Positions 1-39,690 of a stretch of DNA of 64,000 nt are shown here, one piece after another. The stretch is from NCBI GenBank assembly GCA_000004985.1, contig GG738860.1; one strand, written 5' to 3'. The notes below the pieces were generated by a model, which was not told the DNA's origin, did no database searches, and was given only the letters and a program-made list of their open reading frames with translations. The DNA is from Naegleria gruberi (Eukaryota). How positions within the stretch are numbered: the stretch's first letter is position 1; each line of letters begins with the position of its first letter. The position numbers and the translations under genes were made by a program.

Positions 1-1029
1 ATTCCGAATGACAAGAACAAAACCCCTACATGTAAGAATGGAAGGCTTATTACAAATACCACTACTCCTCAACAATTTGCCTCAACCAAATGTTCATGTT
101 TTAAGGGATATTCGGGAAGTGATTGTAACATACCAGTTTGTTTTGGATTGAAGGCAAGTTCAAAATCTGTATGTGGTGGCAAAGGTAACTCCAAATGTAT
201 TGCTCCAGATACATGCATTAAAATCAATGAAGCAACAATCATGAAGCGATTTCAATCCAATGCTAAAGAGGACAGTTCATGTTCCAATCGTGGTCAAATG
301 AGTAATGGTCAATGCATATGTAGTGAGGGATTCTATGGAGAATCTTGCGAATATTCTAATTGTTATGATACAGCTAGCCAGCTCACTTGTAGTGGAAGAG
401 GAGAATGCTCCTCTGATAATATTTGCACTTGTAGAGAGAATGATATGTTTGGCGATAGATGTCAATACACACTCCCAGATAAGATTTATCAAAATGATGT
501 TTGTGGGTCATGTATCATTGTGGCTGGTGTCAGTGGAGATGCTATTCCATCGAAGTATTCACTCTTGAACAATCCTACTGGACTATTTGTGGATGAAACA
601 ACTGGTTTCATCTTTTTCGCAGATCAAGGCAATGCAAAGGCAAGAGTTCTCACAAGGGATGATACTATCTATTCGATTGCCTCTGTTTCCACACCAACTA
701 GTATAGCATTCGATAAGAAAACAAGAGATGTCTATATTGGTACTAGAAATGGACTATTCAAATTGAACAGCAAGAGAGAACTCTCTAAATTGAACAGCTT
801 GTATTGTAGCAGTGTCATTGTTAATGGTCAGGGACATGTTGTGTTTACACAGGGACCATATAACAAGATTTCAAAACTTGTAAATGGTGTGCAAGTTGAG
901 GTGGCAGGGGATAATGACGGCGAAGGAAAATATGATGGTGACAACAAAGTGGCAACGGATGCAAGTGTCAACAATCCAGCTTATTTGAGCTACCATGCTG
1001 ACTCTGATACAATTTACTTTATGGACAGA
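1..1029 (+). CDS. Partial gene, with the 5' end outside the window and the 3' end in the gap at 1030-1079. It encodes an extracellular EGF-like/NHL-repeat protein that is a paralogue of the giant receptor-kinase gene downstream.
   Basis: Frame 1 is open from position 1. It contains Cys-rich modules of the form C-x-C-FKGYSGSDC-NIPVCFG and CSGRGEC...C-C, matching the repeat pattern at 12340-14010. These are followed by NHL-like beta-propeller repeats (LNNPTGLFVDETTGFIFFADQGN). The apparent C-terminal tail in the ORF track (TEWLRPYHDECTSSRPI) is read-through into the 5S rRNA gene and is not coding. Confidence 0.6.
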
Positions 1030-1079
1030 NNNNNNNNNNNNNNNNNNNNNNNNNNNNNNNNNNNNNNNNNNNNNNNNNN
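1030..1079. other. Assembly gap of 50 N (conventional unsized gap)
   Basis: Run of N. Confidence 1.
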
Positions 1080-1087
1080 AACTGAAT

Positions 1088-1207
1088 GGCTACGGCCATA
1101 TCACGATGAATGCACCTCATCCCGTCCGATTTGAGAAGTTAAGCATCGTCGAGCCACATCAGTACTGAGGTTGGAGACAACTTGGGAACCTGTGGTGCTG
1201 TAGTCTA
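1088..1207 (+). rRNA. 5S: 5S ribosomal RNA
   Basis: The sequence GGCTACGGCCATATCACGATGAATGCACCTCATCCCGTCCGATTTGAGAAGTTAAGCATCGTCGAGCCACATCAGTACTGAGGTTGGAGACAACTTGGGAACCTGTGGTGCTGTAGTCT aligns along its full length with eukaryotic 5S rRNA. Box A/C region, loop E motif AGTACT..GGGA and a closing helix that pairs the 5' and 3' ends are present. The GC content is locally much higher than the flanks, and T-rich runs follow the 3' end. Confidence 0.85.
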
Positions 1208-1723
1208 TTTAAATTCAACTTTTTAGATGTCGATTTTCAGAACAATTTGAAAGTTCAATAAACTTGTGAATAATTAATGCTTCAAAGCTTATAAAAAGTT
1301 TAACCACAATTATTAATAGATTTTAAATTAATTGAATACATAGAGAGATCAACATTCATCATTCCATAGCAATCACACTGCAATCCAACAACCAAAGGTA
1401 TCAGCAAAAGGCAACTTATGGGTTAGGGTATTCGATTGCTGTGAAGTGGGTACACTAGCTCAGTTGTCTTTTTTTCTATTTCCCAATCAATGAGTGCTTT
1501 TGGAGTATGTTGATACATTTATTATTTACAAACTTTTTTGTTACAAATTTCAATCGAAATGCCTGAGAAATTTTTTAAAATGAAAGTGCCCAATCATTGA
1601 TTATTTTCTCTATGGTTTTAAGAAATGAAACTTTGAAAATTGAATCTTAGCTAGATTACATATAATTTATCATATAATGATAAAATTAAATGTCAAATAT
1701 AGGAGATGGAGTCAAAAATTAAT

Positions 1724-1794
1724 CTCGAGTGCCGGGAATTGAACCCGGGTCGCCAGAGTGACAGTCTGGAATGCTACCACTATACCACACCCGA
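1724..1794 (-). tRNA. tRNA-Asp (anticodon GUC)
   Basis: The reverse complement folds as a cloverleaf: acceptor TCGGGTG/CACTCGA, anticodon stem CCAGA/TCTGG with loop CTGTCAC, T-arm GGGTTCAATTCCC and discriminator G. Confidence 0.9.
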
Positions 1795-2261
1795 TTTCAC
1801 ATGTTGTATCACCAGTAACAGTATTTGTAGTTGTTCAAACGGATTACCATAAAAGGAACCTTAGTGTTTCTTTTTAATATAATTATACTTACATATATGT
1901 ATACCTACTGAGAATGGATCCATACAATCGATTACTCCAACGAACTAAATTTTGAATCTGCTAATTGTCAACAAATGATATTGTTAAACAAAATACAAAC
2001 ACTATGAAATGCACAACTTCATTCTAAACATTGTATTAGAAAAATTGGAAATAGGAAAGAATCGGTAAAATTGTCTCATAGTGATTCTCTCTTGTTTATG
2101 GCCATAAATACTTTTTTGGACAGTTTCGTATGAAATTGGGTTTTGTAATATTTATTTTCTATGACATGTCATGCATAATTTCTTGTACTTGCCATCTCAA
2201 TGGCACACAAGGGTCACAACAAATTTTTTCTTCAAGAGGCACCANCTCCTTCTTGCTTGTT

Positions 2262-5200
2262 NNNNNNNNNNNNNNNNNNNNNNNNNNNNNNNNNNNNNNN
2301 NNNNNNNNNNNNNNNNNNNNNNNNNNNNNNNNNNNNNNNNNNNNNNNNNNNNNNNNNNNNNNNNNNNNNNNNNNNNNNNNNNNNNNNNNNNNNNNNNNNN
2401 NNNNNNNNNNNNNNNNNNNNNNNNNNNNNNNNNNNNNNNNNNNNNNNNNNNNNNNNNNNNNNNNNNNNNNNNNNNNNNNNNNNNNNNNNNNNNNNNNNNN
2501 NNNNNNNNNNNNNNNNNNNNNNNNNNNNNNNNNNNNNNNNNNNNNNNNNNNNNNNNNNNNNNNNNNNNNNNNNNNNNNNNNNNNNNNNNNNNNNNNNNNN
2601 NNNNNNNNNNNNNNNNNNNNNNNNNNNNNNNNNNNNNNNNNNNNNNNNNNNNNNNNNNNNNNNNNNNNNNNNNNNNNNNNNNNNNNNNNNNNNNNNNNNN
2701 NNNNNNNNNNNNNNNNNNNNNNNNNNNNNNNNNNNNNNNNNNNNNNNNNNNNNNNNNNNNNNNNNNNNNNNNNNNNNNNNNNNNNNNNNNNNNNNNNNNN
2801 NNNNNNNNNNNNNNNNNNNNNNNNNNNNNNNNNNNNNNNNNNNNNNNNNNNNNNNNNNNNNNNNNNNNNNNNNNNNNNNNNNNNNNNNNNNNNNNNNNNN
2901 NNNNNNNNNNNNNNNNNNNNNNNNNNNNNNNNNNNNNNNNNNNNNNNNNNNNNNNNNNNNNNNNNNNNNNNNNNNNNNNNNNNNNNNNNNNNNNNNNNNN
3001 NNNNNNNNNNNNNNNNNNNNNNNNNNNNNNNNNNNNNNNNNNNNNNNNNNNNNNNNNNNNNNNNNNNNNNNNNNNNNNNNNNNNNNNNNNNNNNNNNNNN
3101 NNNNNNNNNNNNNNNNNNNNNNNNNNNNNNNNNNNNNNNNNNNNNNNNNNNNNNNNNNNNNNNNNNNNNNNNNNNNNNNNNNNNNNNNNNNNNNNNNNNN
3201 NNNNNNNNNNNNNNNNNNNNNNNNNNNNNNNNNNNNNNNNNNNNNNNNNNNNNNNNNNNNNNNNNNNNNNNNNNNNNNNNNNNNNNNNNNNNNNNNNNNN
3301 NNNNNNNNNNNNNNNNNNNNNNNNNNNNNNNNNNNNNNNNNNNNNNNNNNNNNNNNNNNNNNNNNNNNNNNNNNNNNNNNNNNNNNNNNNNNNNNNNNNN
3401 NNNNNNNNNNNNNNNNNNNNNNNNNNNNNNNNNNNNNNNNNNNNNNNNNNNNNNNNNNNNNNNNNNNNNNNNNNNNNNNNNNNNNNNNNNNNNNNNNNNN
3501 NNNNNNNNNNNNNNNNNNNNNNNNNNNNNNNNNNNNNNNNNNNNNNNNNNNNNNNNNNNNNNNNNNNNNNNNNNNNNNNNNNNNNNNNNNNNNNNNNNNN
3601 NNNNNNNNNNNNNNNNNNNNNNNNNNNNNNNNNNNNNNNNNNNNNNNNNNNNNNNNNNNNNNNNNNNNNNNNNNNNNNNNNNNNNNNNNNNNNNNNNNNN
3701 NNNNNNNNNNNNNNNNNNNNNNNNNNNNNNNNNNNNNNNNNNNNNNNNNNNNNNNNNNNNNNNNNNNNNNNNNNNNNNNNNNNNNNNNNNNNNNNNNNNN
3801 NNNNNNNNNNNNNNNNNNNNNNNNNNNNNNNNNNNNNNNNNNNNNNNNNNNNNNNNNNNNNNNNNNNNNNNNNNNNNNNNNNNNNNNNNNNNNNNNNNNN
3901 NNNNNNNNNNNNNNNNNNNNNNNNNNNNNNNNNNNNNNNNNNNNNNNNNNNNNNNNNNNNNNNNNNNNNNNNNNNNNNNNNNNNNNNNNNNNNNNNNNNN
4001 NNNNNNNNNNNNNNNNNNNNNNNNNNNNNNNNNNNNNNNNNNNNNNNNNNNNNNNNNNNNNNNNNNNNNNNNNNNNNNNNNNNNNNNNNNNNNNNNNNNN
4101 NNNNNNNNNNNNNNNNNNNNNNNNNNNNNNNNNNNNNNNNNNNNNNNNNNNNNNNNNNNNNNNNNNNNNNNNNNNNNNNNNNNNNNNNNNNNNNNNNNNN
4201 NNNNNNNNNNNNNNNNNNNNNNNNNNNNNNNNNNNNNNNNNNNNNNNNNNNNNNNNNNNNNNNNNNNNNNNNNNNNNNNNNNNNNNNNNNNNNNNNNNNN
4301 NNNNNNNNNNNNNNNNNNNNNNNNNNNNNNNNNNNNNNNNNNNNNNNNNNNNNNNNNNNNNNNNNNNNNNNNNNNNNNNNNNNNNNNNNNNNNNNNNNNN
4401 NNNNNNNNNNNNNNNNNNNNNNNNNNNNNNNNNNNNNNNNNNNNNNNNNNNNNNNNNNNNNNNNNNNNNNNNNNNNNNNNNNNNNNNNNNNNNNNNNNNN
4501 NNNNNNNNNNNNNNNNNNNNNNNNNNNNNNNNNNNNNNNNNNNNNNNNNNNNNNNNNNNNNNNNNNNNNNNNNNNNNNNNNNNNNNNNNNNNNNNNNNNN
4601 NNNNNNNNNNNNNNNNNNNNNNNNNNNNNNNNNNNNNNNNNNNNNNNNNNNNNNNNNNNNNNNNNNNNNNNNNNNNNNNNNNNNNNNNNNNNNNNNNNNN
4701 NNNNNNNNNNNNNNNNNNNNNNNNNNNNNNNNNNNNNNNNNNNNNNNNNNNNNNNNNNNNNNNNNNNNNNNNNNNNNNNNNNNNNNNNNNNNNNNNNNNN
4801 NNNNNNNNNNNNNNNNNNNNNNNNNNNNNNNNNNNNNNNNNNNNNNNNNNNNNNNNNNNNNNNNNNNNNNNNNNNNNNNNNNNNNNNNNNNNNNNNNNNN
4901 NNNNNNNNNNNNNNNNNNNNNNNNNNNNNNNNNNNNNNNNNNNNNNNNNNNNNNNNNNNNNNNNNNNNNNNNNNNNNNNNNNNNNNNNNNNNNNNNNNNN
5001 NNNNNNNNNNNNNNNNNNNNNNNNNNNNNNNNNNNNNNNNNNNNNNNNNNNNNNNNNNNNNNNNNNNNNNNNNNNNNNNNNNNNNNNNNNNNNNNNNNNN
5101 NNNNNNNNNNNNNNNNNNNNNNNNNNNNNNNNNNNNNNNNNNNNNNNNNNNNNNNNNNNNNNNNNNNNNNNNNNNNNNNNNNNNNNNNNNNNNNNNNNNN

Positions 5201-8200
5201 NNNNNNNNNNNNNNNNNNNNNNNNNNNNNNNNNNNNNNNNNNNNNNNNNNNNNNNNNNNNNNNNNNNNNNNNNNNNNNNNNNNNNNNNNNNNNNNNNNNN
5301 NNNNNNNNNNNNNNNNNNNNNNNNNNNNNNNNNNNNNNNNNNNNNNNNNNNNNNNNNNNNNNNNNNNNNNNNNNNNNNNNNNNNNNNNNNNNNNNNNNNN
5401 NNNNNNNNNNNNNNNNNNNNNNNNNNNNNNNNNNNNNNNNNNNNNNNNNNNNNNNNNNNNNNNNNNNNNNNNNNNNNNNNNNNNNNNNNNNNNNNNNNNN
5501 NNNNNNNNNNNNNNNNNNNNNNNNNNNNNNNNNNNNNNNNNNNNNNNNNNNNNNNNNNNNNNNNNNNNNNNNNNNNNNNNNNNNNNNNNNNNNNNNNNNN
5601 NNNNNNNNNNNNNNNNNNNNNNNNNNNNNNNNNNNNNNNNNNNNNNNNNNNNNNNNNNNNNNNNNNNNNNNNNNNNNNNNNNNNNNNNNNNNNNNNNNNN
5701 NNNNNNNNNNNNNNNNNNNNNNNNNNNNNNNNNNNNNNNNNNNNNNNNNNNNNNNNNNNNNNNNNNNNNNNNNNNNNNNNNNNNNNNNNNNNNNNNNNNN
5801 NNNNNNNNNNNNNNNNNNNNNNNNNNNNNNNNNNNNNNNNNNNNNNNNNNNNNNNNNNNNNNNNNNNNNNNNNNNNNNNNNNNNNNNNNNNNNNNNNNNN
5901 NNNNNNNNNNNNNNNNNNNNNNNNNNNNNNNNNNNNNNNNNNNNNNNNNNNNNNNNNNNNNNNNNNNNNNNNNNNNNNNNNNNNNNNNNNNNNNNNNNNN
6001 NNNNNNNNNNNNNNNNNNNNNNNNNNNNNNNNNNNNNNNNNNNNNNNNNNNNNNNNNNNNNNNNNNNNNNNNNNNNNNNNNNNNNNNNNNNNNNNNNNNN
6101 NNNNNNNNNNNNNNNNNNNNNNNNNNNNNNNNNNNNNNNNNNNNNNNNNNNNNNNNNNNNNNNNNNNNNNNNNNNNNNNNNNNNNNNNNNNNNNNNNNNN
6201 NNNNNNNNNNNNNNNNNNNNNNNNNNNNNNNNNNNNNNNNNNNNNNNNNNNNNNNNNNNNNNNNNNNNNNNNNNNNNNNNNNNNNNNNNNNNNNNNNNNN
6301 NNNNNNNNNNNNNNNNNNNNNNNNNNNNNNNNNNNNNNNNNNNNNNNNNNNNNNNNNNNNNNNNNNNNNNNNNNNNNNNNNNNNNNNNNNNNNNNNNNNN
6401 NNNNNNNNNNNNNNNNNNNNNNNNNNNNNNNNNNNNNNNNNNNNNNNNNNNNNNNNNNNNNNNNNNNNNNNNNNNNNNNNNNNNNNNNNNNNNNNNNNNN
6501 NNNNNNNNNNNNNNNNNNNNNNNNNNNNNNNNNNNNNNNNNNNNNNNNNNNNNNNNNNNNNNNNNNNNNNNNNNNNNNNNNNNNNNNNNNNNNNNNNNNN
6601 NNNNNNNNNNNNNNNNNNNNNNNNNNNNNNNNNNNNNNNNNNNNNNNNNNNNNNNNNNNNNNNNNNNNNNNNNNNNNNNNNNNNNNNNNNNNNNNNNNNN
6701 NNNNNNNNNNNNNNNNNNNNNNNNNNNNNNNNNNNNNNNNNNNNNNNNNNNNNNNNNNNNNNNNNNNNNNNNNNNNNNNNNNNNNNNNNNNNNNNNNNNN
6801 NNNNNNNNNNNNNNNNNNNNNNNNNNNNNNNNNNNNNNNNNNNNNNNNNNNNNNNNNNNNNNNNNNNNNNNNNNNNNNNNNNNNNNNNNNNNNNNNNNNN
6901 NNNNNNNNNNNNNNNNNNNNNNNNNNNNNNNNNNNNNNNNNNNNNNNNNNNNNNNNNNNNNNNNNNNNNNNNNNNNNNNNNNNNNNNNNNNNNNNNNNNN
7001 NNNNNNNNNNNNNNNNNNNNNNNNNNNNNNNNNNNNNNNNNNNNNNNNNNNNNNNNNNNNNNNNNNNNNNNNNNNNNNNNNNNNNNNNNNNNNNNNNNNN
7101 NNNNNNNNNNNNNNNNNNNNNNNNNNNNNNNNNNNNNNNNNNNNNNNNNNNNNNNNNNNNNNNNNNNNNNNNNNNNNNNNNNNNNNNNNNNNNNNNNNNN
7201 NNNNNNNNNNNNNNNNNNNNNNNNNNNNNNNNNNNNNNNNNNNNNNNNNNNNNNNNNNNNNNNNNNNNNNNNNNNNNNNNNNNNNNNNNNNNNNNNNNNN
7301 NNNNNNNNNNNNNNNNNNNNNNNNNNNNNNNNNNNNNNNNNNNNNNNNNNNNNNNNNNNNNNNNNNNNNNNNNNNNNNNNNNNNNNNNNNNNNNNNNNNN
7401 NNNNNNNNNNNNNNNNNNNNNNNNNNNNNNNNNNNNNNNNNNNNNNNNNNNNNNNNNNNNNNNNNNNNNNNNNNNNNNNNNNNNNNNNNNNNNNNNNNNN
7501 NNNNNNNNNNNNNNNNNNNNNNNNNNNNNNNNNNNNNNNNNNNNNNNNNNNNNNNNNNNNNNNNNNNNNNNNNNNNNNNNNNNNNNNNNNNNNNNNNNNN
7601 NNNNNNNNNNNNNNNNNNNNNNNNNNNNNNNNNNNNNNNNNNNNNNNNNNNNNNNNNNNNNNNNNNNNNNNNNNNNNNNNNNNNNNNNNNNNNNNNNNNN
7701 NNNNNNNNNNNNNNNNNNNNNNNNNNNNNNNNNNNNNNNNNNNNNNNNNNNNNNNNNNNNNNNNNNNNNNNNNNNNNNNNNNNNNNNNNNNNNNNNNNNN
7801 NNNNNNNNNNNNNNNNNNNNNNNNNNNNNNNNNNNNNNNNNNNNNNNNNNNNNNNNNNNNNNNNNNNNNNNNNNNNNNNNNNNNNNNNNNNNNNNNNNNN
7901 NNNNNNNNNNNNNNNNNNNNNNNNNNNNNNNNNNNNNNNNNNNNNNNNNNNNNNNNNNNNNNNNNNNNNNNNNNNNNNNNNNNNNNNNNNNNNNNNNNNN
8001 NNNNNNNNNNNNNNNNNNNNNNNNNNNNNNNNNNNNNNNNNNNNNNNNNNNNNNNNNNNNNNNNNNNNNNNNNNNNNNNNNNNNNNNNNNNNNNNNNNNN
8101 NNNNNNNNNNNNNNNNNNNNNNNNNNNNNNNNNNNNNNNNNNNNNNNNNNNNNNNNNNNNNNNNNNNNNNNNNNNNNNNNNNNNNNNNNNNNNNNNNNNN

Positions 8201-11200
8201 NNNNNNNNNNNNNNNNNNNNNNNNNNNNNNNNNNNNNNNNNNNNNNNNNNNNNNNNNNNNNNNNNNNNNNNNNNNNNNNNNNNNNNNNNNNNNNNNNNNN
8301 NNNNNNNNNNNNNNNNNNNNNNNNNNNNNNNNNNNNNNNNNNNNNNNNNNNNNNNNNNNNNNNNNNNNNNNNNNNNNNNNNNNNNNNNNNNNNNNNNNNN
8401 NNNNNNNNNNNNNNNNNNNNNNNNNNNNNNNNNNNNNNNNNNNNNNNNNNNNNNNNNNNNNNNNNNNNNNNNNNNNNNNNNNNNNNNNNNNNNNNNNNNN
8501 NNNNNNNNNNNNNNNNNNNNNNNNNNNNNNNNNNNNNNNNNNNNNNNNNNNNNNNNNNNNNNNNNNNNNNNNNNNNNNNNNNNNNNNNNNNNNNNNNNNN
8601 NNNNNNNNNNNNNNNNNNNNNNNNNNNNNNNNNNNNNNNNNNNNNNNNNNNNNNNNNNNNNNNNNNNNNNNNNNNNNNNNNNNNNNNNNNNNNNNNNNNN
8701 NNNNNNNNNNNNNNNNNNNNNNNNNNNNNNNNNNNNNNNNNNNNNNNNNNNNNNNNNNNNNNNNNNNNNNNNNNNNNNNNNNNNNNNNNNNNNNNNNNNN
8801 NNNNNNNNNNNNNNNNNNNNNNNNNNNNNNNNNNNNNNNNNNNNNNNNNNNNNNNNNNNNNNNNNNNNNNNNNNNNNNNNNNNNNNNNNNNNNNNNNNNN
8901 NNNNNNNNNNNNNNNNNNNNNNNNNNNNNNNNNNNNNNNNNNNNNNNNNNNNNNNNNNNNNNNNNNNNNNNNNNNNNNNNNNNNNNNNNNNNNNNNNNNN
9001 NNNNNNNNNNNNNNNNNNNNNNNNNNNNNNNNNNNNNNNNNNNNNNNNNNNNNNNNNNNNNNNNNNNNNNNNNNNNNNNNNNNNNNNNNNNNNNNNNNNN
9101 NNNNNNNNNNNNNNNNNNNNNNNNNNNNNNNNNNNNNNNNNNNNNNNNNNNNNNNNNNNNNNNNNNNNNNNNNNNNNNNNNNNNNNNNNNNNNNNNNNNN
9201 NNNNNNNNNNNNNNNNNNNNNNNNNNNNNNNNNNNNNNNNNNNNNNNNNNNNNNNNNNNNNNNNNNNNNNNNNNNNNNNNNNNNNNNNNNNNNNNNNNNN
9301 NNNNNNNNNNNNNNNNNNNNNNNNNNNNNNNNNNNNNNNNNNNNNNNNNNNNNNNNNNNNNNNNNNNNNNNNNNNNNNNNNNNNNNNNNNNNNNNNNNNN
9401 NNNNNNNNNNNNNNNNNNNNNNNNNNNNNNNNNNNNNNNNNNNNNNNNNNNNNNNNNNNNNNNNNNNNNNNNNNNNNNNNNNNNNNNNNNNNNNNNNNNN
9501 NNNNNNNNNNNNNNNNNNNNNNNNNNNNNNNNNNNNNNNNNNNNNNNNNNNNNNNNNNNNNNNNNNNNNNNNNNNNNNNNNNNNNNNNNNNNNNNNNNNN
9601 NNNNNNNNNNNNNNNNNNNNNNNNNNNNNNNNNNNNNNNNNNNNNNNNNNNNNNNNNNNNNNNNNNNNNNNNNNNNNNNNNNNNNNNNNNNNNNNNNNNN
9701 NNNNNNNNNNNNNNNNNNNNNNNNNNNNNNNNNNNNNNNNNNNNNNNNNNNNNNNNNNNNNNNNNNNNNNNNNNNNNNNNNNNNNNNNNNNNNNNNNNNN
9801 NNNNNNNNNNNNNNNNNNNNNNNNNNNNNNNNNNNNNNNNNNNNNNNNNNNNNNNNNNNNNNNNNNNNNNNNNNNNNNNNNNNNNNNNNNNNNNNNNNNN
9901 NNNNNNNNNNNNNNNNNNNNNNNNNNNNNNNNNNNNNNNNNNNNNNNNNNNNNNNNNNNNNNNNNNNNNNNNNNNNNNNNNNNNNNNNNNNNNNNNNNNN
10001 NNNNNNNNNNNNNNNNNNNNNNNNNNNNNNNNNNNNNNNNNNNNNNNNNNNNNNNNNNNNNNNNNNNNNNNNNNNNNNNNNNNNNNNNNNNNNNNNNNNN
10101 NNNNNNNNNNNNNNNNNNNNNNNNNNNNNNNNNNNNNNNNNNNNNNNNNNNNNNNNNNNNNNNNNNNNNNNNNNNNNNNNNNNNNNNNNNNNNNNNNNNN
10201 NNNNNNNNNNNNNNNNNNNNNNNNNNNNNNNNNNNNNNNNNNNNNNNNNNNNNNNNNNNNNNNNNNNNNNNNNNNNNNNNNNNNNNNNNNNNNNNNNNNN
10301 NNNNNNNNNNNNNNNNNNNNNNNNNNNNNNNNNNNNNNNNNNNNNNNNNNNNNNNNNNNNNNNNNNNNNNNNNNNNNNNNNNNNNNNNNNNNNNNNNNNN
10401 NNNNNNNNNNNNNNNNNNNNNNNNNNNNNNNNNNNNNNNNNNNNNNNNNNNNNNNNNNNNNNNNNNNNNNNNNNNNNNNNNNNNNNNNNNNNNNNNNNNN
10501 NNNNNNNNNNNNNNNNNNNNNNNNNNNNNNNNNNNNNNNNNNNNNNNNNNNNNNNNNNNNNNNNNNNNNNNNNNNNNNNNNNNNNNNNNNNNNNNNNNNN
10601 NNNNNNNNNNNNNNNNNNNNNNNNNNNNNNNNNNNNNNNNNNNNNNNNNNNNNNNNNNNNNNNNNNNNNNNNNNNNNNNNNNNNNNNNNNNNNNNNNNNN
10701 NNNNNNNNNNNNNNNNNNNNNNNNNNNNNNNNNNNNNNNNNNNNNNNNNNNNNNNNNNNNNNNNNNNNNNNNNNNNNNNNNNNNNNNNNNNNNNNNNNNN
10801 NNNNNNNNNNNNNNNNNNNNNNNNNNNNNNNNNNNNNNNNNNNNNNNNNNNNNNNNNNNNNNNNNNNNNNNNNNNNNNNNNNNNNNNNNNNNNNNNNNNN
10901 NNNNNNNNNNNNNNNNNNNNNNNNNNNNNNNNNNNNNNNNNNNNNNNNNNNNNNNNNNNNNNNNNNNNNNNNNNNNNNNNNNNNNNNNNNNNNNNNNNNN
11001 NNNNNNNNNNNNNNNNNNNNNNNNNNNNNNNNNNNNNNNNNNNNNNNNNNNNNNNNNNNNNNNNNNNNNNNNNNNNNNNNNNNNNNNNNNNNNNNNNNNN
11101 NNNNNNNNNNNNNNNNNNNNNNNNNNNNNNNNNNNNNNNNNNNNNNNNNNNNNNNNNNNNNNNNNNNNNNNNNNNNNNNNNNNNNNNNNNNNNNNNNNNN

Positions 11201-11231
11201 NNNNNNNNNNNNNNNNNNNNNNNNNNNNNNN
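2262..11231. other. Sized assembly gap of 8970 N. All ORF-track entries of the form 2130..13386 that consist of X residues are artefacts.
   Basis: Run of N. An isolated N also occurs at 2245. Confidence 1.
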
Positions 11232-14200
11232 TACTGGAACAATTGCCAAAGTCTTTTCTGCTCCATACGGTGTTAAAAGCTTCCACAAACTTGAGAATGG
11301 TAATTTTATTTTCGCAGAGAAAAATTATCCTAGAATTGCCCTTTTCAAGACCAATAGCAGCAAGATTATCTACTTGGCTGGTCAATACGAACAAGGTTAC
11401 GATCCAATCGTTATTTCTGACAATGTGTTAGCAACCACAACAAGTGTGAATCATCCTCGATCACTCTATGTAAAGAATGGAGAGCTCTATTTTGCAGATA
11501 CCTACAACTCTCTCGTGAGAAAAATCACCCTCTCAACAGGAGTTCTCTCAACCATTGCTGGTAATGGAGGTGAGCGTTTTTATGGGGATGGTGGATTGGG
11601 AACGAGTGCTTCTTTGAACTATCCATATGGAATTCACTTACATACTGATGGTTCTATCTACATTGCCGATACTTACAATAGTAAGATTAGAAAGTTAGAC
11701 TCTTCCAAAAAGATTAGCTCAGTTGCTGGAAATGGATATTTGGGATATTCGGACAATACTCAACCATTGAGAGCTTCATTCAATTTGGCAGTAAGCGTTC
11801 TCATTAACAACGTAGGGGACATGTACATTTCAGATTATGCAAACAATGTAATTAGAAAGATGAGCTCCTCTGGTGCCATTACAACTATTGCTGGACAAGC
11901 AAAGATTTCTGGTTTTGCTGATAGTTTAAATGCAAAGACTGCTCTATTGAATGGTCCATTTGGATTATATTATCAGGAATCCACACAAACTCTCTTTTTT
12001 GCTGACAGTCTCAATGGTAGAATAAGAAAGCTAACAAAGAATGGAGCAATTGAAACAGTTCTTGCTTCAATTAACGATCCAAGAGAAATCTCATTCCACA
12101 CAACCCATGGTCACATGTACTTTACTTCTGGAGGTGACCAAACCATTAAGGTTCTATTCTCCAATGGTACTCTTTCTGTGCTCAACATTCCAAAAGATTA
12201 CTACATTGGTCTCCATGTTGATTCCACTAATGATTATCTCTATGCAAGTGGTTATACATACATTTATAGATTTTCCATTGCAGGAGGTAGTAGCATTGAT
12301 CACAATCAAACCGATCCAATCATCGATAACATTTCTAAGAATTGTACTAAGGGATGTGAAAAGGGTGAATGTGTGAATGGAACTTGCGTCTGTAAGGAAA
12401 ATTATGGAGGTGAAATTTGTGATAGGCCAATGTGTTTTGGAAAATTGAGCAATGAGAGTGGTGTGTGTAATACTCACGGAGTTTGTCTGCAACCAAACGT
12501 TTGCTACTGTTACGGAAATTGGGAGGCCGAAGAATGCACCCAATGTAAGAGTGGATTTACTGGTTCTAATTGCAGAACCTGTGCCGATGGTTTTGTTGGA
12601 GAATTGTGTAATATCCCTATTTGTTTCAACGTATTTGCTAATGAATCAAACGTTTGTTCTGGACATGGTTCTTGCAAATCTCCAAACAATTGTTCATGCT
12701 TTGGAAATTGGGAGGGAGAAAGTTGTCAATCTTGTAAGGAGGGATACACTGGCTCAGAATGTGACACTCCAGTTTGTTTCGGGTTCAGNNNNNNNNNNNN
12801 NNNNNNNNNNNNNNNNNNNNNNNNNNNNNNNNNNNNNNNNNNNNNNNNNNNNNNNNNNNNNNNNNNNNNNNNNNNNNNNNNNNNNNNNNNNNNNNNNNNN
12901 NNNNNNNNNNNNNNNNNNNNNNNNNNNNNNNNNNNNNNNNNNNNNNNNNNNNNNNNNNNNTGGGTTGGAGATTGTGTGATTCCTGTCAAGCTGGATACAG
13001 TGGTTCAAATTGTGATATTCCTGTTTGTTTTGGATCAAGCGTTGAAGGAGATGGTTCTTTGGTTTGCTCAGGGCACGGTAACTGTTCAGGACCAGATATG
13101 TGCACTTGTAACGAAAACTGGTCTGGAAATGATTGTTCCACTTGTAGAGAAGGTTATTATGGAGAAGACTGCTCCTCATGTACACCTGGATTCAGTGGTG
13201 AGAGATGTGACATTCCTTCATGCTTTGGTATTTCAGCAAATGCTAGTAATGTATGTTCTGGAAATGGTTATTGTTTCAGTCCAGATTTGTGCTCCTGCTT
13301 TGAGAATTGGAAGGGTGAAAGTTGTAATCAATGCAGTAGCGATTACATTGGTGAATTGTGTGATATTCCGTCCTGTTTTGGAGTGAATGGTAATGATAGA
13401 TCAGTTTGTTCTGGTCATGGCTCTTGTATTACCCCATCCAATTGTTCTTGTTTCAATAACTGGGAAGGAGCAATGTGTGAAAATTGTCCAACAGGTTTCT
13501 CTGGAGATGACTGCAAATCCTGTGACGAAAGTCACACTGGAGAGGGATGTGATGTTCCAATCTGTTACGGCCTTGCAGCTAATAATGAAAGTGTTTGCTC
13601 TGGAAATGGCAAGTGCATTGAGTCCTCTGTATGTGTTTGTTCTGGTTTTTGGACTGGAGCTAATTGTGATACTTGTCCAGAAAAGTATTCAGGATCGGCT
13701 TGTGATGTGCCAGTTTGTTATGGAGTAAGCGCTAACGATTCTATGGTTTGCTCTGGACATGGTTCTTGTGTTGCACCTTCTCAATGTTTTTGTGAAGGAA
13801 GATGGGCTGGAGAATTGTGTGATTCCTGCGTGGCTGGATATAATGGTTCAAATTGTGAAAATCCAATCTGCTTTGGAGAATTCAACACCTCTATTGTTTG
13901 TTCTGGTCATGGTTTGTGCTCAGCACTAGATGTTTGTGTGTGTAGCGAGCAATGGGCTGGAGAAACTTGTGGCAAATGTAATTCTGGATATTACGGAATA
14001 ACTTGTGAGCTTTCTTGTGATCCACAAATAGTGAAACCATCTCTCACAATCAAGCAAGGTTCAATAATTTCCTATGTGATTGGAACTTCTATTGCTTTGG
14101 AACCAGAATTGACAATTCCATTGTGCTATGCCGGTCATTTCAGCTCCATTAGCTATGGATATGCTTCTGATTTCTTTAACCAATCTCAACTGGTTCAGGT

Positions 14201-17200
14201 TGATAAATTCCTTGTCATTGGCGAATCAACCAAGAGCTCTGGAACTTTAATTTCTAACGAAGGTGAATATTCATTCAAGGTTATTGCTACACTTGGCAGG
14301 TTGGAAATTTCCACTTCCTTTGAATTTATTGTCAAGTCCAATTTGGCTTCGCTCACTCTTGATTTCAACATTCCAAATATGCTCACTCAATCCTTTGAAA
14401 AACCTTTGGAATTTGAAGTTAAAGCCTCTGATCCAAGCTTCCCTAGTGATTTAACTGAGGGTGATTTATCACTCAATTGTTGGAATCAAGATAATCAATT
14501 GGTAGAAAAGTTGGTTGACACTGTTTTCAATCATACTATTACAGTCTCAAAACAACTCAATCCAGGGCAATATGTTTGTGAAGCAACATTCAAGAAGGAT
14601 TCCAGAGTTATTACCAAGTCAATTCAGGTTGTCCTTGTTGATGTCTCTTCATCAAATGTACTCACTGTTACTCTTAAATTGGAAGGTCAAAATCCAACTT
14701 GGGTAAATCCAACAAAAGATTTGACCATATCAGCTGATATCAAAGAATCTATTGGTCCAAATGTTGTGTATGATTGGAAATCTCCATTCCAACCAATGGA
14801 TACAACTGTCTCGAATCAATTAGTTATTCCATCCAGTCAATTAGCTCTTGGAAAGAGGTATAACATTTCTCTGATTGTTACAGATGGAAGTAAGAAGGGA
14901 TTTGGATTTATTTCCTTCAAGACCTATAGTCCTCCTTCAATGGGATCATTCTCTGTTTCTCCTCTCTTTGGTTACTCTCTCACAACCAATTTCATGCTAT
15001 CTGGTGGTGTTGATTGGATTTCTTTCAATCAAGATGTCTTGACATTTACATTCATTTATAGAAGTGTAGGTTCTTTGGCATGGAAATCATTGGCTGAAAG
15101 TTCTGTTCAAACATCTCTCAATACTACTCTCCCTTCAGGAACATGGGAAACTTCAGTTTCAGTTTCCGATTCATTCTTATCATACACAATCTATGATAAA
15201 CCAGTCATAGTCCAGGTGAATACTACAGATTTAACTGTTGCTCAATTGAATTATGTTGCCTCTAATCCAATTACTCCATCAGTCATTTCTTCATTGATTA
15301 GTTATGTGAGCAGTGGTTCTTCTTCCAAGTGAAAGAACAATCAAAACAAATTGTCATGGATAGTATCAAGACATCTTTGACAAAGGAGACTCTTGACACT
15401 ACATTGACAGTTTCTTCATTGAAATCTGCCATTTCAGTTATTGATTCGGTGAGCTCAGTTGTTAATGTCTTTAGGGATAGTGAAAGTACTGTTGTTTTGG
15501 AATACTTTTCGACAGTATTACACAAGACAATATCCAATGGAATTCAAATGTCTTCTGATGATATTCAGCTATGTTTGAACTCTGCTACAAAATTTGAAGA
15601 ATTCTTCTTTGGATCAAAGAGACGAACTTCTCGTGCAGTATCTGATTCACTTGAAAAGATCACTCAGATTTATAATATTCTCACAGAAGTTCAGTTCAGA
15701 AAACTAAAGGAAGGCGAAGGCCCTTCAAGAATTTCAAGTTTATCATACTACTCGTATTGCAAATTTATGAAATCTGATTCGATTGCTCCATATTCTGATA
15801 CCATCACTCAAACTTCTCTTCAATTCTCCTTGTTGCAAGCCCTTAATACTTCAAGAGATACTTTGGGCGTTCCAGAGAATTCAATGGTATGCCTCAAGAT
15901 GTATTATGTTCAATCTTGGAGAAGTGTCATGCCAAGCTCTTATACTGTTGAGTTATCATTCTTGGATATTAAGCGTGATTATGCCTCTGTTTCAATTTCT
16001 AGTAGCCACAATATTGCAAAATTGACCATTCCAAGAATGAATACTGGAGTTGATAAGAAACAAACATGTTACCTTGTTGATACAATGAAAAAGGAAGAAT
16101 GCTCAATTTCCTCTACTAGTCCTCTTCAAATAGTTATTCAAACCACCAAGACTGGAAAATTCTTTGTTGGTTACTATGAAGATGCTGCAACGCCAATTGT
16201 TAATCCTTCCAATGGTGACGTTTCCCTCAGTGCTTTTATTGTCATATTTGCCATCATTCTTCCAATATTAGTTTGTGGTTGTATTTGTGCAGCACTTGCT
16301 ATTGTTTGTGGTTGTGCCTGTAAGAAATGGAAAGCTAGAGCAGCATTGAACAGCCATTCAATTCTCCGAAGTACTCAATCATTACCACTTCCAAATGAAC
16401 GATTGGATGTAACATTTGATGATATCAATGTCTATAATACTGGAATTAATAGTAGTCCTTTATTGCCACTCTATATTCAACCAAGTGAACTTAAACTCTT
16501 GTCGAAACTGGGAAGTGGTGGATATGGAAGTGTTCATAAGGCCTATTGGAAAGATCAACTTGTTGCTGTCAAGTCTACTCCAGTTCCAGATAACTCCAAG
16601 CAAATTGAAATTCCAAGAGAAGCTGCACTCATGTATTCATTGAAACATCCAAATATTGTTGAATGTTACGGTATTTCTATTAAGGGAAAGGAACAATTAA
16701 TTGTTATGGAATATGTTAATGGAAATTTGAATCAATTGATTGGGGATTTGTGTAGAAAATCTATCAAGATGGATTTGGATGAAAAGATTGAAATTTTACT
16801 TCAAATTGCCACTGGTATGAATTACTTGCATCAATTGAATCCTTCCATTGTTCACAGAGATTTGACTCCTGCTAATGTGTTATTTGATCCAAGAACAAAA
16901 GCTTGTAAGATTTGTGATTTTGGTCTCAGTAAGCCGCTCAACTTGGAAAATACTGAAACCAAGAATAGGAGTACCATATATTTCGTTCCTAACGAGCTTA
17001 TTTGTTGTACAGATCCAAATTTAACCAATAATCCACGTGCCATTGATGTTTACAGTTTCTCCATTCTTGCTTGGCAAGTAATCTTTGAAGACCATCCTTA
17101 TCTGTATATCAATAAGGAAAAACTCTTCTCCAACTCTAAATTCAAACACACTCCATATGTTGATGTGACCAATGACAACTTATTGGCAAGAGTTGCTACT

Positions 17201-17434
17201 GGATTGAGACCTGTCATTCCATTCAATGCTGATACAGTTTCTAAATGGACTCAAAAATTCATCAAATCCAAGTATGATAATGATTTGATAGCACTCTCAA
17301 TGATTGCCATAGCTCAACTCGTTCAAAATTGTTGGAACTTGAATCCTCATTTGAGACCCAACTTCCAAGATGTTAGTGATACATTACAAACATGCAAAAA
17401 TACTCTCTCCAGTAACCATCCTCTCTTAGTTTAA
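11232..17434 (+). CDS. Giant receptor-type protein kinase. The 5' part lies in the gap, there is an internal 172-N gap at 12789-12960, and a frame discontinuity occurs near 15305-15371. Domain order is NHL beta-propeller, about 15 EGF-like modules, a beta-rich extracellular region, one TM helix and a cytoplasmic TKL-type kinase domain.
   Basis: NHL-type repeats span 11232-12300 (YPYGIHLHTDGSIYIADTYNSKIRKL). Tandem Cys-rich modules of the form C..C..GY.G..C..P.CFG....VCSGHG.C.....C.C...W.G..C span 12340-14010. The TM segment SAFIVIFAIILPILVCGCICAALAIVCGCAC lies near 16225-16320. The kinase carries GSGGYGSVHKAYW..VAVK, HRDLTPANVLF and DFG motifs at 16480-17400, with a TAA stop at 17432-17434. 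The ORF track splits the gene into 12774..15332 and 15329..17434 because of a -1 frame change. Confidence 0.75.
12789..12960. other. Assembly gap of 172 N inside the EGF-repeat region of the receptor-kinase gene
   Basis: Run of N. Confidence 1.
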
Positions 17435-17486: not shown

Positions 17487-17560
17487 TGCCTCCCTTGGGA
17501 ATCGAACCCAAGACCTCTGTCTTACTAGGACAGCGCTACTGCCAACTGAGCTAGGAAGGC
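17487..17560 (-). tRNA. tRNA-Thr (anticodon AGU)
   Basis: Reverse complement is GCCTTCCTAGCTCAGTTGGCAGTAGCGCTGTCCTAGTAAGACAGAGGTCTTGGGTTCGATTCCCAAGGGAGGCA. Anticodon stem CTGTC/GACAG with loop CTAGTAA gives AGT, and acceptor GCCTTCC pairs with GGGAGGC. Confidence 0.9.
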
Positions 17561-18095: not shown

Positions 18096-19136
18096 TTAAT
18101 CACCCAACCAAATTGAATTTTGAAAACTTACATCCAACTGATGGTAAATAATAGTATTAGGATATTCAATTCCCTTTTCATGATTAATCTTTAAATATTC
18201 CAATTGGAATTTTCTCTTATAGAATGAGTTAATCTTCTTTTCAAATGATTTCTTAAAAAATAGATTGAAAATACTCTTGTGATCTCCACTCATCAATCCA
18301 GTAAAACAAATCACTGGTAGGGCTTCTTCACCTAAATTCATATAATAATTATTAACACTGGTAAGTGTTTTGGTTCCAGTCTTTTCATCTGCCACTTTCC
18401 ACCTGTTGCTATCGTTCAATGTTGATATTAATTCTTTCAAAATTTCATAATCCTTTGGAGTGACATAGATTGAGGTATTATCAATTAGGGGTCTATCTTT
18501 ATCCTTGATGGGTGTACTCTTTGCTATTTCCTCTATAAAGCTATCACTATCACTCGAATCCTGTGAAATGCTACTGTCTGATCTATCCAATGCTTTTTTG
18601 GTCCCTAATTGTTCAAGTAATTGTGACGGAGAGTCCTTGTATTCTGGCTTTTTAGCTTCCTTCTTTAAAAAGGATTTAAATTGTTCAGATTCGGTAAATC
18701 TTGGAAAATTATCTTGTTTCAATTCGGAAAAGATGACGTTCTGAGCTTTTTGGAACAAGTCCGATGGACATTCTATTAATTCAACTGCTTTTCCTTCATT
18801 AAATTCTTGAGTTAAACTCCAAATCTTTAGAATATCTTTCCTAATGGTCATTGACAAGTTTAATTCATGTTTGGCACTCACAACAATAAAAGTATTCATA
18901 ATTTCCACAGCCATATCAAATCTATTCTTGTCCAATCTTGTTTTTTGATACTTTTCAACCATTTCATAAAACATGAAAGGATCTTCATTCAAATTATCCT
19001 TTAAAAACTTTCGGAAACAATCACGAGCACTTTCATGATCAAAAACTGCTTCAATATTGAATTTATATCGTTGAATGAGAGAATCGTCCAAACCAACTGT
19101 TGGTTTCTGCGGTTGGCCTGACAGGTTATTCAACAT
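18096..19136 (-). CDS. RGS (regulator of G-protein signalling) domain protein of about 346 aa
   Basis: RGS-domain hallmarks are present in the N-terminal 150 aa: FEAVFDHESARDCFRKFLKDNLNEDPFMFYEMVEKYQK ... SAKHELNLSMTIRKDI ... FSELKQDNFPRFTESEQFKSFL. The start is taken as ATG MLNNLSGQPQ at 19134-19136, because the ORF-track start is a TTG. Confidence 0.75.
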   Translation of the reverse strand: MLNNLSGQPQKPTVGLDDSLIQRYKFNIEAVFDHESARDCFRKFLKDNLNEDPFMFYEMVEKYQKTRLDKNRFDMAVEIMNTFIVVSAKHELNLSMTIRKDILKIWSLTQEFNEGKAVELIECPSDLFQKAQNVIFSELKQDNFPRFTESEQFKSFLKKEAKKPEYKDSPSQLLEQLGTKKALDRSDSSISQDSSDSDSFIEEIAKSTPIKDKDRPLIDNTSIYVTPKDYEILKELISTLNDSNRWKVADEKTGTKTLTSVNNYYMNLGEEALPVICFTGLMSGDHKSIFNLFFKKSFEKKINSFYKRKFQLEYLKINHEKGIEYPNTIIYHQLDVSFQNSIWLGD

Positions 19137-19378
19137 TTTTTTCTTATTAGTTTCGGATGAGATAACTATTGTCTTCCAACACAATACCACATAGCTCTAA
19201 GATATTTATTACTCCATACTATTTTGATTGTGTTCGTTCTTCTATTAATATAACCATTGAAGGTTTGTATATCCGAGGCCCTAGCAGCAAGTCCTCTCCG
19301 TTGTCCGATTCCAACCAAGGCTTTCATTCACTGATCATCATCATTAAACATTAAATAATAATTAATAATAAATTATAA

Positions 19379-19980: not shown

Positions 19981-21486
19981 ATGATGGAGGGACGAAACTT
20001 ATTCTCTCGATGTATTTCCATCTTTCTAATAGTTATTGGCATTTGTTGTTTGTTTGGAAGTGGCACTTTTGTGGAAGGAAAGTTTAGTTTCAAGTCAGCC
20101 ATTAGTAAAGTAAAGAATAGCGTTTCGAATAAAATTAAACAGGCAGAAAGAAAGATAAAGGATCGCATTCGTCAGGTCAAAGATGTATCTTTTGGCAAGT
20201 GGAAGAATATCAAACAGAAAGCTAAAAAGAAGTTATTCGATTCTGTTTCAAAGGTTTCTAACAAGTTGAAGAATAGGGCCAACAAGAAGAAACAATTGTT
20301 CATGAAATATTCCTCTAAAATTAAACAACAAGCAAAGAAATTGAAGGGAAAATACAAGAAACTCTCCAACAAATTGAAGAATAGCAAAATTGTAAAGAAA
20401 ATCAAAGAAAAATCACAGAAATTTAAAAAGAGCAAATTTGGACGAAAGATTTCTTCCAAGATTGAAACAACTAAACAAGCATTGAGAAAGGCAGGTAAGA
20501 AAATTGACAAAATCTTCTCTCCAATCAAGAAATCTCTAAAGAAAGTTTCTCAAAAGATTGCAAAGAAGGCATTGAAAGAATTAAACAAAATTGGAAAGAA
20601 AATTAGCGAAACTAAAGGTTGGAAAATCTTGAAAAAACAAGCAAAGAAACTTTTACATTGGAAGAGTGGTGCAAAGAATGACCAAACTAAAGGTGTTACC
20701 AAATTGGAAACTTTAAACGGAATGAATAGTAATCAAAAGGTCACACCCAAGTCATCAATCACTGCCAAATCAGTTGAATTGGCATCTGAATTCTCAAAAG
20801 CCAATGACAATGATGCAAAGAGTGAAGCATTATTGAAACAACAAGGTTACAAGCCAATTCTTGAAAAGGATCACAAAATTGAAAAGATTGCTTCTAAAGT
20901 TTGGTACAATGAAAAAGATAAGACCCTTGTAGTTTCGTATAGAGGAACTGATGTAAATTCTGTTGTGGATTGGGGAAATAACTTTGATATGAAGATGAAA
21001 CCTGCCTATTTCAATGGAAAATACGTTGGAAAAGTTCACTCTGGTTTCTATAAGCATTACATGAAAGATAGAAAGGAAATCAACAAGCTCATTAATCAAT
21101 ATCAAAAGGAAGGAAAAGTTTCCAAGATTGTTTTCACAGGACACAGTAAGGGAGGCGCACTGAGTGAACTTGCAGCCACCGATTACAAATTGAATCACAA
21201 GAATAATGCAGCCAAAATTGAATTAATTACATTTGGTAATCCAAGAGTTGGAGATAAGGAACACGCTCAAATAGTCAATAAGAATATTAAGGATTTCGTT
21301 CGTGTTGTCAATATGGTGGATAAGAATGGTAATGGACCAGCTCAGAAAGACATTGTTGCTCAAATGCCACCACAAGAATTAGGATTTGCTCATGCAGGAA
21401 ATGAAGTTCAAATTGAATGTGAACAAGGTGGATATGCTTCATGCCATGGATTGGATAATTATATGAAAAATTTGGATCCAAAATAA
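19981..21486 (+). CDS. Secreted class-3 (fungal-type) triacylglycerol lipase with a Lys-rich repetitive N-terminal region
   Basis: Signal peptide MMEGRNLFSRCISIFLIVIGICCLFG is followed by a long K-rich low-complexity stretch. The lipase_3 core carries YRGTDVNSVVDWGNN, and the nucleophile elbow GHSKGGALSELAA is of the GHSxG type. Confidence 0.85.
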   Translation: MMEGRNLFSRCISIFLIVIGICCLFGSGTFVEGKFSFKSAISKVKNSVSNKIKQAERKIKDRIRQVKDVSFGKWKNIKQKAKKKLFDSVSKVSNKLKNRANKKKQLFMKYSSKIKQQAKKLKGKYKKLSNKLKNSKIVKKIKEKSQKFKKSKFGRKISSKIETTKQALRKAGKKIDKIFSPIKKSLKKVSQKIAKKALKELNKIGKKISETKGWKILKKQAKKLLHWKSGAKNDQTKGVTKLETLNGMNSNQKVTPKSSITAKSVELASEFSKANDNDAKSEALLKQQGYKPILEKDHKIEKIASKVWYNEKDKTLVVSYRGTDVNSVVDWGNNFDMKMKPAYFNGKYVGKVHSGFYKHYMKDRKEINKLINQYQKEGKVSKIVFTGHSKGGALSELAATDYKLNHKNNAAKIELITFGNPRVGDKEHAQIVNKNIKDFVRVVNMVDKNGNGPAQKDIVAQMPPQELGFAHAGNEVQIECEQGGYASCHGLDNYMKNLDPK

Positions 21487-22312: not shown

Positions 22313-22383
22313 GGGGGCGAGGGGGAATCGAACCCCCGGCCACAGCTTTGGAGGCTGCGATGTTACCATTACACCACCGCCCC
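22313..22383 (-). tRNA. tRNA-Trp (anticodon CCA)
   Basis: Reverse complement is GGGGCGGTGGTGTAATGGTAACATCGCAGCCTCCAAAGCTGTGGCCGGGGGTTCGATTCCCCCTCGCCCCC. Anticodon stem GCAGC/GCTGT with loop CTCCAAA gives CCA. Confidence 0.9.
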
Positions 22384-25477: not shown

Positions 25478-25639
25478 TTTTTTTGTAAAATTTCTAAAGC
25501 GCTGTTTTTTGCTTGATATCAAGTAAGTGCTTTACAATTTCTTTTTACAATTCATGTTTGATTGACTTCAAACTTCCACCAATAATAAGAAAAAATTTTA
25601 ATGTGGAGGACTACGTGCTAAATTGTTGTGCAAAAAAAA

Positions 25640-39562: not shown

Positions 39563-39690
39563 ATTCTCTGGAGAATAAAAACAATTGTATTTTTAAAGTA
39601 AAATAACCTTCATAAAATTGTTGTAATAAAGGAAATGAAATCATTGTTTTGGGAAAAGGAAACCAGGTTGCTAAACACCAGATAATTAAA

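Follow-up and report, generated by a model that had tools for sequence, protein, structure and literature searches.

A probable receptor-like protein kinase of Naegleria gruberi with an NHL, EGF and REJ-GAIN ectodomain

We analysed a stretch of 64,000 nucleotides of Naegleria gruberi DNA (contig GG738860.1 of assembly GCA_000004985.1; this whole stretch is referred to as the window). With a probability of about 0.7, the locus at 11233-17434 encodes a type-I, single-pass receptor-like protein kinase, the ectodomain of which combines NHL blades, an array of EGF units, an REJ module and a GAIN-fold domain. The coding sequence lies in three pieces of 518, 789 and 699 codons, and the positions of its features are given in Table 1. 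The first piece (11233-12786, frame 1) starts with a leading tail strand and seven NHL blades and goes on into EGF units; the second (12963-15329) contains six further EGF units, followed by a beta-rich stretch of about 430 aa; the third (15335-17431) comprises about 300 extracellular residues, a hydrophobic helix of 29 aa and a protein kinase. On the gap-free contig that begins at 12961, EGF units, the REJ module, the GAIN-fold domain, one transmembrane helix and, after about 60 aa of juxtamembrane sequence, a TKL-like kinase follow one another, and across the 172-N gap upstream the same frame family continues with further EGF units and the seven NHL blades. As the GAIN-fold domain, the transmembrane helix and the kinase all lie within one uninterrupted open reading frame (ORF, 15329-17434) of the gap-free contig, their fusion is not an artefact of gene modelling.

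The Pfam search that an initial annotation of this DNA had proposed gave matches to TEN_NHL (2.6e-12), NHL (1.4e-07), EGF_Teneurin (3.2e-28), EGF_2 (2.1e-16), REJ (1.6e-17), Pkinase (3.8e-44) and PK_Tyr_Ser-Thr (1.2e-42). These domains and the transmembrane helix, all found at 11233-17434, agree with the large receptor kinase described there, with an NHL and EGF ectodomain, one transmembrane helix and a TKL-type kinase. The same annotation had treated 11232-17434 as a single reading unit; this was right as to the domain content but not as to the single unit, since frame 0 is closed by a stop at 15330-15332 and reading goes on in frame +2.

To place the locus, the REJ part (14073-15329) was compared with 1.84 billion representative proteins in a full HMMER scan. 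A 100% identical match was the N. gruberi "predicted protein" of 2331 aa, XP_002678784.1 (EFC46040.1, D2VB11_NAEGR), the product of the public model NAEGRDRAFT_66049, which the locus overlaps on its draft scaffold. The window therefore belongs to the draft N. gruberi assembly, and the locus is the gene annotated as NAEGRDRAFT_66049, which encodes a public but undescribed and nameless predicted protein. In the full-text literature, no paper was found that pairs Naegleria with "REJ domain", or "GAIN domain" and "protein kinase" with Naegleria. No other contig records encoding the ribonucleotide reductase gene of the window, P0121 or the 692-aa ORF from Met 15356 were found either.

XP_002678784.1 maps onto the window at 1-1023, 11314-12774, 12975-15350 and 15365-17431. 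The window has a GC content of 33.7% and contains four runs of N (1030-1079, 2245, 2262-11231 and 12789-12960), and the three introns that the public model places in it (965-11317, 12776-12990 and 15329-15363) all coincide with assembly defects, namely two N gaps and one frameshift. The gene is probably intronless within the window, and the modelled introns are patches over these defects, so that the public annotation is in need of correction. The deposited protein lacks about 50 aa of true NHL sequence where the first of these introns was drawn, and 12 aa where the third was.

The membrane-proximal part of the ectodomain was studied in detail. A beta-rich region of about 400 aa had been noted here before; the beta-rich character was right, while the region is about 740 aa long and consists of an REJ module followed by a GAIN-fold domain of about 280 aa. 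The REJ match (PF02010) reached 63.7 bits against a cut-off of 25 and covered profile positions 161-416 of 452, and in the alignment with paralogues from Naegleria W, G, D and P are invariant. The segment of roughly 300 residues that separates the REJ module from the transmembrane helix also aligns with the paralogues, with two invariant Cys (C245 and C256) and an invariant Thr-Gly (T273 and G274) just before the last strand. AlphaFold2, run on the paralogue alignment, gave a model with a pLDDT of 80.9 and a pTM of 0.72, in which five helices and about 13 beta strands are followed by a linker and the transmembrane helix (residues 298-329). When this model was compared with the PDB by Foldseek, the first six places were all taken by GAIN domains: those of BAI3 (two chains; best E 7e-10, TM-score 0.58), BAI2, CELSR1, GPR110 and CD97. 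The predicted structure thus assigns a GAIN fold to the juxtamembrane domain, immediately before the transmembrane helix. An REJ and GAIN pair is the membrane-proximal unit of polycystin-1-type proteins.

The triad described for autoproteolysis of GAIN domains is His-Leu↓Thr/Ser (Arac et al., PMC3321182). At the equivalent position of the window protein there is no His at -2 and no Leu at -1, and only the +1 Thr is conserved. Self-cleavage of the window protein appears unlikely, because Thr-Lys↓Thr occupies the position of the triad. Two relatives from other species, P0129 (N. lovaniensis C9374_009380) and P0132 (N. fowleri FDP41_001861), have a more canonical GPS-like motif, CA[MF]WN...SCKIVE..., and the region of the GPS reads AQVHRTGLFM in P0129, with His at -2 of the conserved Thr, and AQVFRTGLFM in P0132. 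Judging from this motif, P0129 might still be self-cleaving, unlike the N. gruberi proteins.

The single transmembrane helix, FIVIFAIILPILVCGCICAALAIVCGCAC, is the only one that follows the GAIN-fold domain; a seven-transmembrane region is not present. Likewise, Pfam found no match to PLAT or PKD_channel in the window protein, in which one helix and then the kinase follow, with no 11-transmembrane region. The kinase carries the motifs GSGGYGSV, VAVK, HRDLTPAN, DFG, DVYSFSILAWQV and CW..P..RP.F, so that the G-loop, the VAVK Lys, the alphaC Glu, the HRD Asp, the Asn and the DFG are in place and subdomains IX and XI are of the TK/TKL type. Its best matches in the PDB were CTR1 (7e-31), EGFR, MAP3K9/MLK, RIPK4, MLK4 and TNNI3K, mostly TKL kinases with TK kinases mixed in, which makes the designation TKL-like a reasonable one. 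A word-indexed protein search with the GAIN, transmembrane and kinase parts as the query returned kinase-only matches of at most 79 bits, from an index without these Naegleria proteins. With the GAIN part alone or a 6-sequence REJ-GAIN profile as the query, this search had no match, not even to the identical public protein or to the members of the profile, so that its negatives do not speak for absence in this organism. A metagenome scan gave only a kinase-only match, at 27%.

On the N-terminal side, each EGF unit consists of a six-Cys module, P.C[FY]G....VCSGHG.C...C.C..W.G..C, followed by one or two C..GY.G..C hairpins. The array itself had been recognised before, with about 15 modules; we count about ten units, nine of them complete and one split by a gap. 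A single-sequence AlphaFold2 model of the seven-blade NHL region had a pLDDT of 38.7, at which blade closure and the number of propellers are not readable.

The window protein is a member of a Naegleria-wide family of single-pass membrane proteins with EGF, REJ and GAIN parts. Of the 13 best non-self matches of the HMMER scan (P0122-P0134), the 12 other than P0133 were identified. Each of the 12 comes from Naegleria; their lengths run from 582 to 2643 aa, and their phmmer E-values from 2.9e-38 to 9.4e-19. At least 11 paralogues are encoded by N. gruberi, and further members by N. fowleri and N. lovaniensis. Family members such as XP_002677046.1, XP_002683274.1, XP_002672407.1, FDP41_001861 and C9374_009380 are collinear with the window protein over about 700 aa at 23-33% identity, and share with it a teneurin/laminin-type EGF array, the REJ module, a GAIN-fold domain with the two invariant Cys and the invariant T-G, and one transmembrane helix. 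The Naegleria paralogues differ from it at both ends: they finish either with the transmembrane helix and a basic tail of short length or with a C-terminus that is hydrophobic, whereas the window protein ends in a kinase, and they carry other N-terminal modules, which in one member include a subtilase domain. In addition, the window protein lacks a further PKD/REJ segment, about 220 aa long, which is present in those paralogues that were inspected. The 90% cluster of P0134 includes an N. gruberi family member of 1474 aa, XP_002678591.1, whose source record calls it "basal body protein"; this label hints at a link of the family to flagellar differentiation, reminiscent of polycystins in cilia.

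The uniqueness of the window protein was assessed among 40 relatives, that is, 14 family members, including the window protein, and 26 more distant matches. In the family, Pfam found REJ in 14 of 14 members and EGF_Teneurin in 13 of 14, and Pkinase and NHL in one member each, in both cases the window protein. REJ was also found in 25 of the 26 more distant matches and GPS in two of them, and a kinase in none. The initial annotation had called the architecture unusual and had suggested a check for paralogues; that check gave the N. gruberi paralogues of the EGF-REJ-GAIN part described above, none with a kinase or NHL, and the window protein is the only one with either among the 40. Within the relatives detectable by HMMER in the 1.84 billion proteins, the succession of REJ, GAIN, transmembrane helix and kinase is thus unique to the window gene, and this member alone has gained a cytoplasmic kinase and N-terminal NHL propellers.

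Several observations weigh against the receptor kinase proposed here. The GAIN assignment rests on a structure predicted from a 12-sequence alignment; the Pfam GPS and GAIN models had no match in the window protein or in the family scan, and a profile search of PDB sequences with the GAIN alignment had no match, so that GAIN was detected by fold comparison only. The catalytic-loop Lys is replaced by Thr (HRDLTPAN), and kinase activity is not assured. The HMMER scan gave no orthologue with this architecture from N. fowleri or N. lovaniensis. The deposited sequence does contain the TGA at 15330-15332, which could be genuine. For the signal peptide, which is encoded upstream of the window, the public model is the only source, and it is relevant only if the coding fragment at 1-1029 belongs to the gene. 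Finally, what lies between this fragment and 11232, namely genes for 5S rRNA and tRNA-Asp and a distance estimated at about 9-10 kb, counts against simple adjacency.

The 5' fragment is open in frame 1 throughout, and the gap at 1030 interrupts its blade a4 after ..TIYFMDR. In XP_002678784.1, the counterpart of the fragment runs from residue 56 to about residue 376-398; the public model starts 55 aa upstream of the window with the signal-peptide-like segment MKNKSRKGWSNALFLLNYFIIMMIILQISTNYYCLA and is spliced from 964 to 11318. It had been taken for a truncated paralogue that arose by local duplication. Its content, EGF followed by NHL, was confirmed; the duplication was not, because at the DNA level the fragment resembles no other part of the window and its protein identity to the downstream modules is only 27-35%, the level seen among modules within one protein, and it is cut by the window edge on one side and by a gap on the other, not demonstrably by biology. 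A metagenome scan found no relatives of the 5' NHL fragment. The small contig that follows (1080-2261, 1.18 kb) lies between two gaps; every one of its six frames contains 22-30 stops, the 5S rRNA gene on it is no part of the receptor coding sequence, and its placement inside a protein-coding gene is suspect.

On balance, we lean slightly towards the fragment at 1-1029 being the 5' end of the kinase gene, in which case the scaffold would have the 5S/tRNA contig in the wrong place. Both coding fragments have the same strand and order, and a 5' fragment with a signal peptide and no 3' end lies directly upstream of a fragment with a 3' end and no 5' end, which favours one gene. Moreover, the contigs end at complementary points of one NHL blade, as ..TIYFMDR, about 10 aa and TGTIAKVFSA.. 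would complete it.

Alternatively, two genes would lie in tandem, a possibility close to the view of the initial annotation that we take seriously without favouring it. The fragment at 1-1029 would then be the 5' end of a separate upstream NHL/EGF gene, the remainder of which has disappeared into the 50-N gap. The DNA of the 5S/tRNA contig would be genuinely intergenic, and the 5' end of the kinase gene, possibly starting at ORF 2130, would lie in the 8970-N gap. The order of the scaffold does put the stop-rich contig between the two coding fragments, the other tRNA genes of the window sit between genes, and the estimated distance of about 10.2 kb would leave room for what is missing from a gene of about 6 kb, for a spacer and for about 1.2 kb of 5' end. 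ORF 2130 itself starts with a short hydrophobic signal-like peptide and goes on with Cys-rich residues. However, the 50-N gap would have to conceal several kb, and ORF 2130 comprises only 44 codons with a GC content like that of non-coding DNA, the other frames and the opposite strand being equally open into the Ns. The complementary contig ends, the link between both parts in the public model and the missing sign of recent duplication also argue for one gene rather than two.

The interruption at 15330 bears on whether the ectodomain and the kinase are one polypeptide. The alignment shows that 11 Naegleria paralogues are continuous and collinear through this point. The public model spans it with a 35-nt GT..AG intron, 15329-15363, the only candidate in phase; we rejected this intron, since it removes residues conserved in all paralogues. 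The frame +2 peptide that it drops, KEQSKQIVMDS, lines up with a motif conserved among the paralogues, (T/S)xEQK(Q/A)A, and because of this match and of the paralogues running through, we regard the intron as a modelling patch. The frame change is due instead to a 1-nt indel in TCTTCTTCCAAGTGAAAG, and an example of the reading restored with one extra base at the frameshift would be CCAAAGTG. The stop is probably a 1-nt draft error and the ectodomain and kinase probably form one polypeptide, because the three coding pieces hold no other stop at about 6% stop positions per codon, and because the surrounding assembly is poor, with three gaps and a single N nearby.

Should the frameshift be real, the gene would have been recently inactivated or split, leaving a secreted NHL-EGF-REJ protein and either nothing else or a truncated GAIN, transmembrane and kinase protein that starts from Met 15356 without a signal peptide. 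The stop in the deposited sequence, the lack of an orthologue of the same architecture found in other Naegleria species and the atypical catalytic loop HRDLTPAN would fit such a history. We nevertheless consider it unlikely: ORFs of such lengths in a genome of 34% GC are incompatible with long-term decay, the shift falls in TCTTCTTCCAAGTGAAAG in the poorly assembled region just described, and a GAIN, transmembrane and kinase protein that lacks a signal peptide would not insert in the correct topology.

The whole polypeptide should comprise about 2400-2600 aa rather than 5000. The larger figure came from the proposal in the initial annotation that ORF 2130 is the first exon of a gene of more than 15 kb encoding about 5000 aa. 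ORF 2130 has 44 real codons and the rest is N, the length of the gap being an estimate only; its GC content is 34.8%, compared with 38.6% in the coding parts, and the probability of its being open by chance is about 0.07. The six "ORFs" of 3018-3728 aa that cross the 8970-N run, on both strands, are artefacts. A size of about 5000 aa has no sequence support. A giant gene of about 15 kb, with the 9-kb gap filled by near-identical NHL/EGF modules that Sanger assembly did not resolve, is improbable: large draft gaps often mark repeats, the protein is modular with 11 visible blades, not a multiple of six, and the frame is open at both gap edges, but the gap length is estimated, the interval contains the non-coding 5S/tRNA contig, no paralogue comes near 5000 aa, their lengths being 1029-2643 aa, and the visible modules are 27-35% identical, not the near-identical repeats that collapse assemblies.

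Table 1. Positions of the kinase locus, its assembly defects and the other features of the window
Feature	Position	Strand	Remarks
5' coding fragment: about 3 EGF-like modules (31-462), NHL blades a1-a4 (514-1029)	1-1029	+	EGF_TEN 9.3e-10, EGF_Teneurin 1.5e-07
Assembly gap, 50 N	1030-1079	.	Directly 3' of the cut NHL blade
5S rRNA gene	1088-1206	+	105.4 bits, E 4.4e-22; within the 10.35-kb intron of the public model
tRNA-Asp(GTC)	1724-1794	-	Same small contig as the 5S rRNA gene
ORF 2130 (MKLGFVIFIFY...)	2130-2261	+	44 real codons, then N run; exon status without evidence
Assembly gap, 8970 N	2262-11231	.	Size is an estimate only
NHL beta-propeller blades: tail strand b0 (TGTIAKVFSA) and b1-b7	11233-12288	+	TEN_NHL 2.6e-12, NHL 1.4e-07; frame open at the gap edge
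EGF array, 10 laminin/teneurin-type units	12343-14006	+	Nine complete, one split by the 172-N gap; EGF_Teneurin 3.2e-28, EGF_2 2.1e-16
Assembly gap, 172 N	12789-12960	.	Splits one EGF unit
REJ module	14040-15328	+	Pfam PF02010 match at 14532-15224; stretch collinear with 13 Naegleria paralogues
1-nt frameshift site	15321-15335	+	Frame 0 TGA at 15330-15332; reading resumes in frame +2 from 15329
GAIN-fold domain (predicted): five-helix subdomain, then about 13-strand beta sandwich	15329-16177	+	Predicted structure and fold comparison
GPS-equivalent position TK↓TGKFFVGYY	16145-16177	+	T-G invariant in the family, two invariant Cys upstream
Single transmembrane helix, 29 aa	16235-16321	+	Same ORF as the GAIN-fold domain and the kinase
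Protein kinase domain, TKL-like	16490-17383	+	Pkinase 3.8e-44; stop codon 17432-17434
tRNA-Thr(AGT)	17487-17560	-	53 nt past the kinase stop codon; marks the 3' limit of the gene
RGS-domain protein	18096-19190	-	
Class-3 lipase	19981-21486	+	
tRNA-Trp(CCA)	22313-22383	-	
LRR protein	24416-25522	-	
Ribonucleotide reductase small subunit	26599-27591	+	Pfam 2.1e-64
tRNA-Thr(TGT)	39690-39780	-	91 nt, intron implied
Second protein kinase, soluble	41004-42095	+	
tRNA-Leu(TAA)	42238-42320	+	
MFS_2 transporter	59315-61198	+	

Besides the kinase locus, the window contains one 5S rRNA gene, five tRNA genes and the protein-coding genes listed in Table 1. When compared with eukaryotic R2 proteins of solved structure, the small subunit of ribonucleotide reductase scored no more than about 200 bits, with Plasmodium R2 as the best match. 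The long ORFs at 22472-24361, 35706-38675 and 42439-45945 had no Pfam match.

If the product is a single polypeptide, it is a receptor kinase that has the REJ-GAIN unit of polycystin-1 and adhesion G-protein-coupled receptors (GPCRs) as its membrane-proximal ectodomain. In such a protein, the NHL propellers and the EGF array could bind a ligand that is extracellular or sits on a cell surface. The rigid REJ-GAIN stalk, likely to be uncleaved as it lacks the His-Leu↓Thr triad, would couple the ligand-binding part to the membrane, and clustering by the ligand or by force would switch the kinase on through trans-autophosphorylation.

So far, the REJ-GAIN stalk has been known only before 7 (adhesion GPCRs) or 11 (polycystin-1) transmembrane helices, or on tail-less single-pass proteins. 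We give a little better than even odds to its being joined here, in a discoban protist, to a single-pass receptor kinase. If this is true, GAIN would be an ancient juxtamembrane sensor, portable between proteins and able to drive a kinase with no need of the tethered-agonist or seven-transmembrane mechanism, and Naegleria would offer a natural test case for the role of an uncleaved GAIN domain. The GAIN fold was reported earlier from Tetrahymena and Dictyostelium to mammals (PMC3321182); our analysis would extend its range to Heterolobosea, in combination with a different effector, a kinase, and defines a Naegleria-wide family of EGF-REJ-GAIN surface proteins.

Among known systems, polycystin-1, PKDREJ and suREJ also have REJ directly before GAIN and next to the first transmembrane helix. 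EGF modules, REJ, GPS and a single transmembrane helix are combined in suREJ1. In contrast to the polycystin-1 family, the window protein has no PLAT, no 11-transmembrane or channel-like region and no canonical GPS, and its cytoplasmic effector is a kinase. The presence of a GAIN domain in PKD1-related proteins is established (PMC3321182). With the adhesion GPCRs (BAI, CELSR, latrophilin, GPR126 and GPR110) the window protein would share the GAIN fold, at a sequence identity of 7-11%; it differs from them in having one transmembrane helix instead of seven and no HormR domain, and the adhesion-GPCR type of autoproteolysis and tethered-agonist mechanism is probably absent from it.

The Pfam teneurin models TEN_NHL, EGF_Teneurin and EGF_TEN match the ectodomain modules of the window protein. 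However, the protein is of type I and not of type II, its NHL blades precede the EGF array, which reverses the order found in teneurins, and Pfam found no YD shell/RHS or Tox-GHH match in the visible sequence. The resemblance to teneurins is thus one of generic NHL and EGF folds only.

Receptor-like kinases of the TKL group include the plant RLK/Pelle kinases and the transmembrane kinases of Entamoeba. These protist and plant proteins have the same single-pass topology, with a TKL-like Ser/Thr kinase and an ectodomain that is rich in Cys or made of repeats. The window protein differs from them in its catalytic loop, which reads HRDLTPAN and not HRDLKxxN, and in its ectodomain of NHL, EGF, REJ and GAIN, found in no other kinase here. 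The window gene would work like a protist receptor-like kinase.

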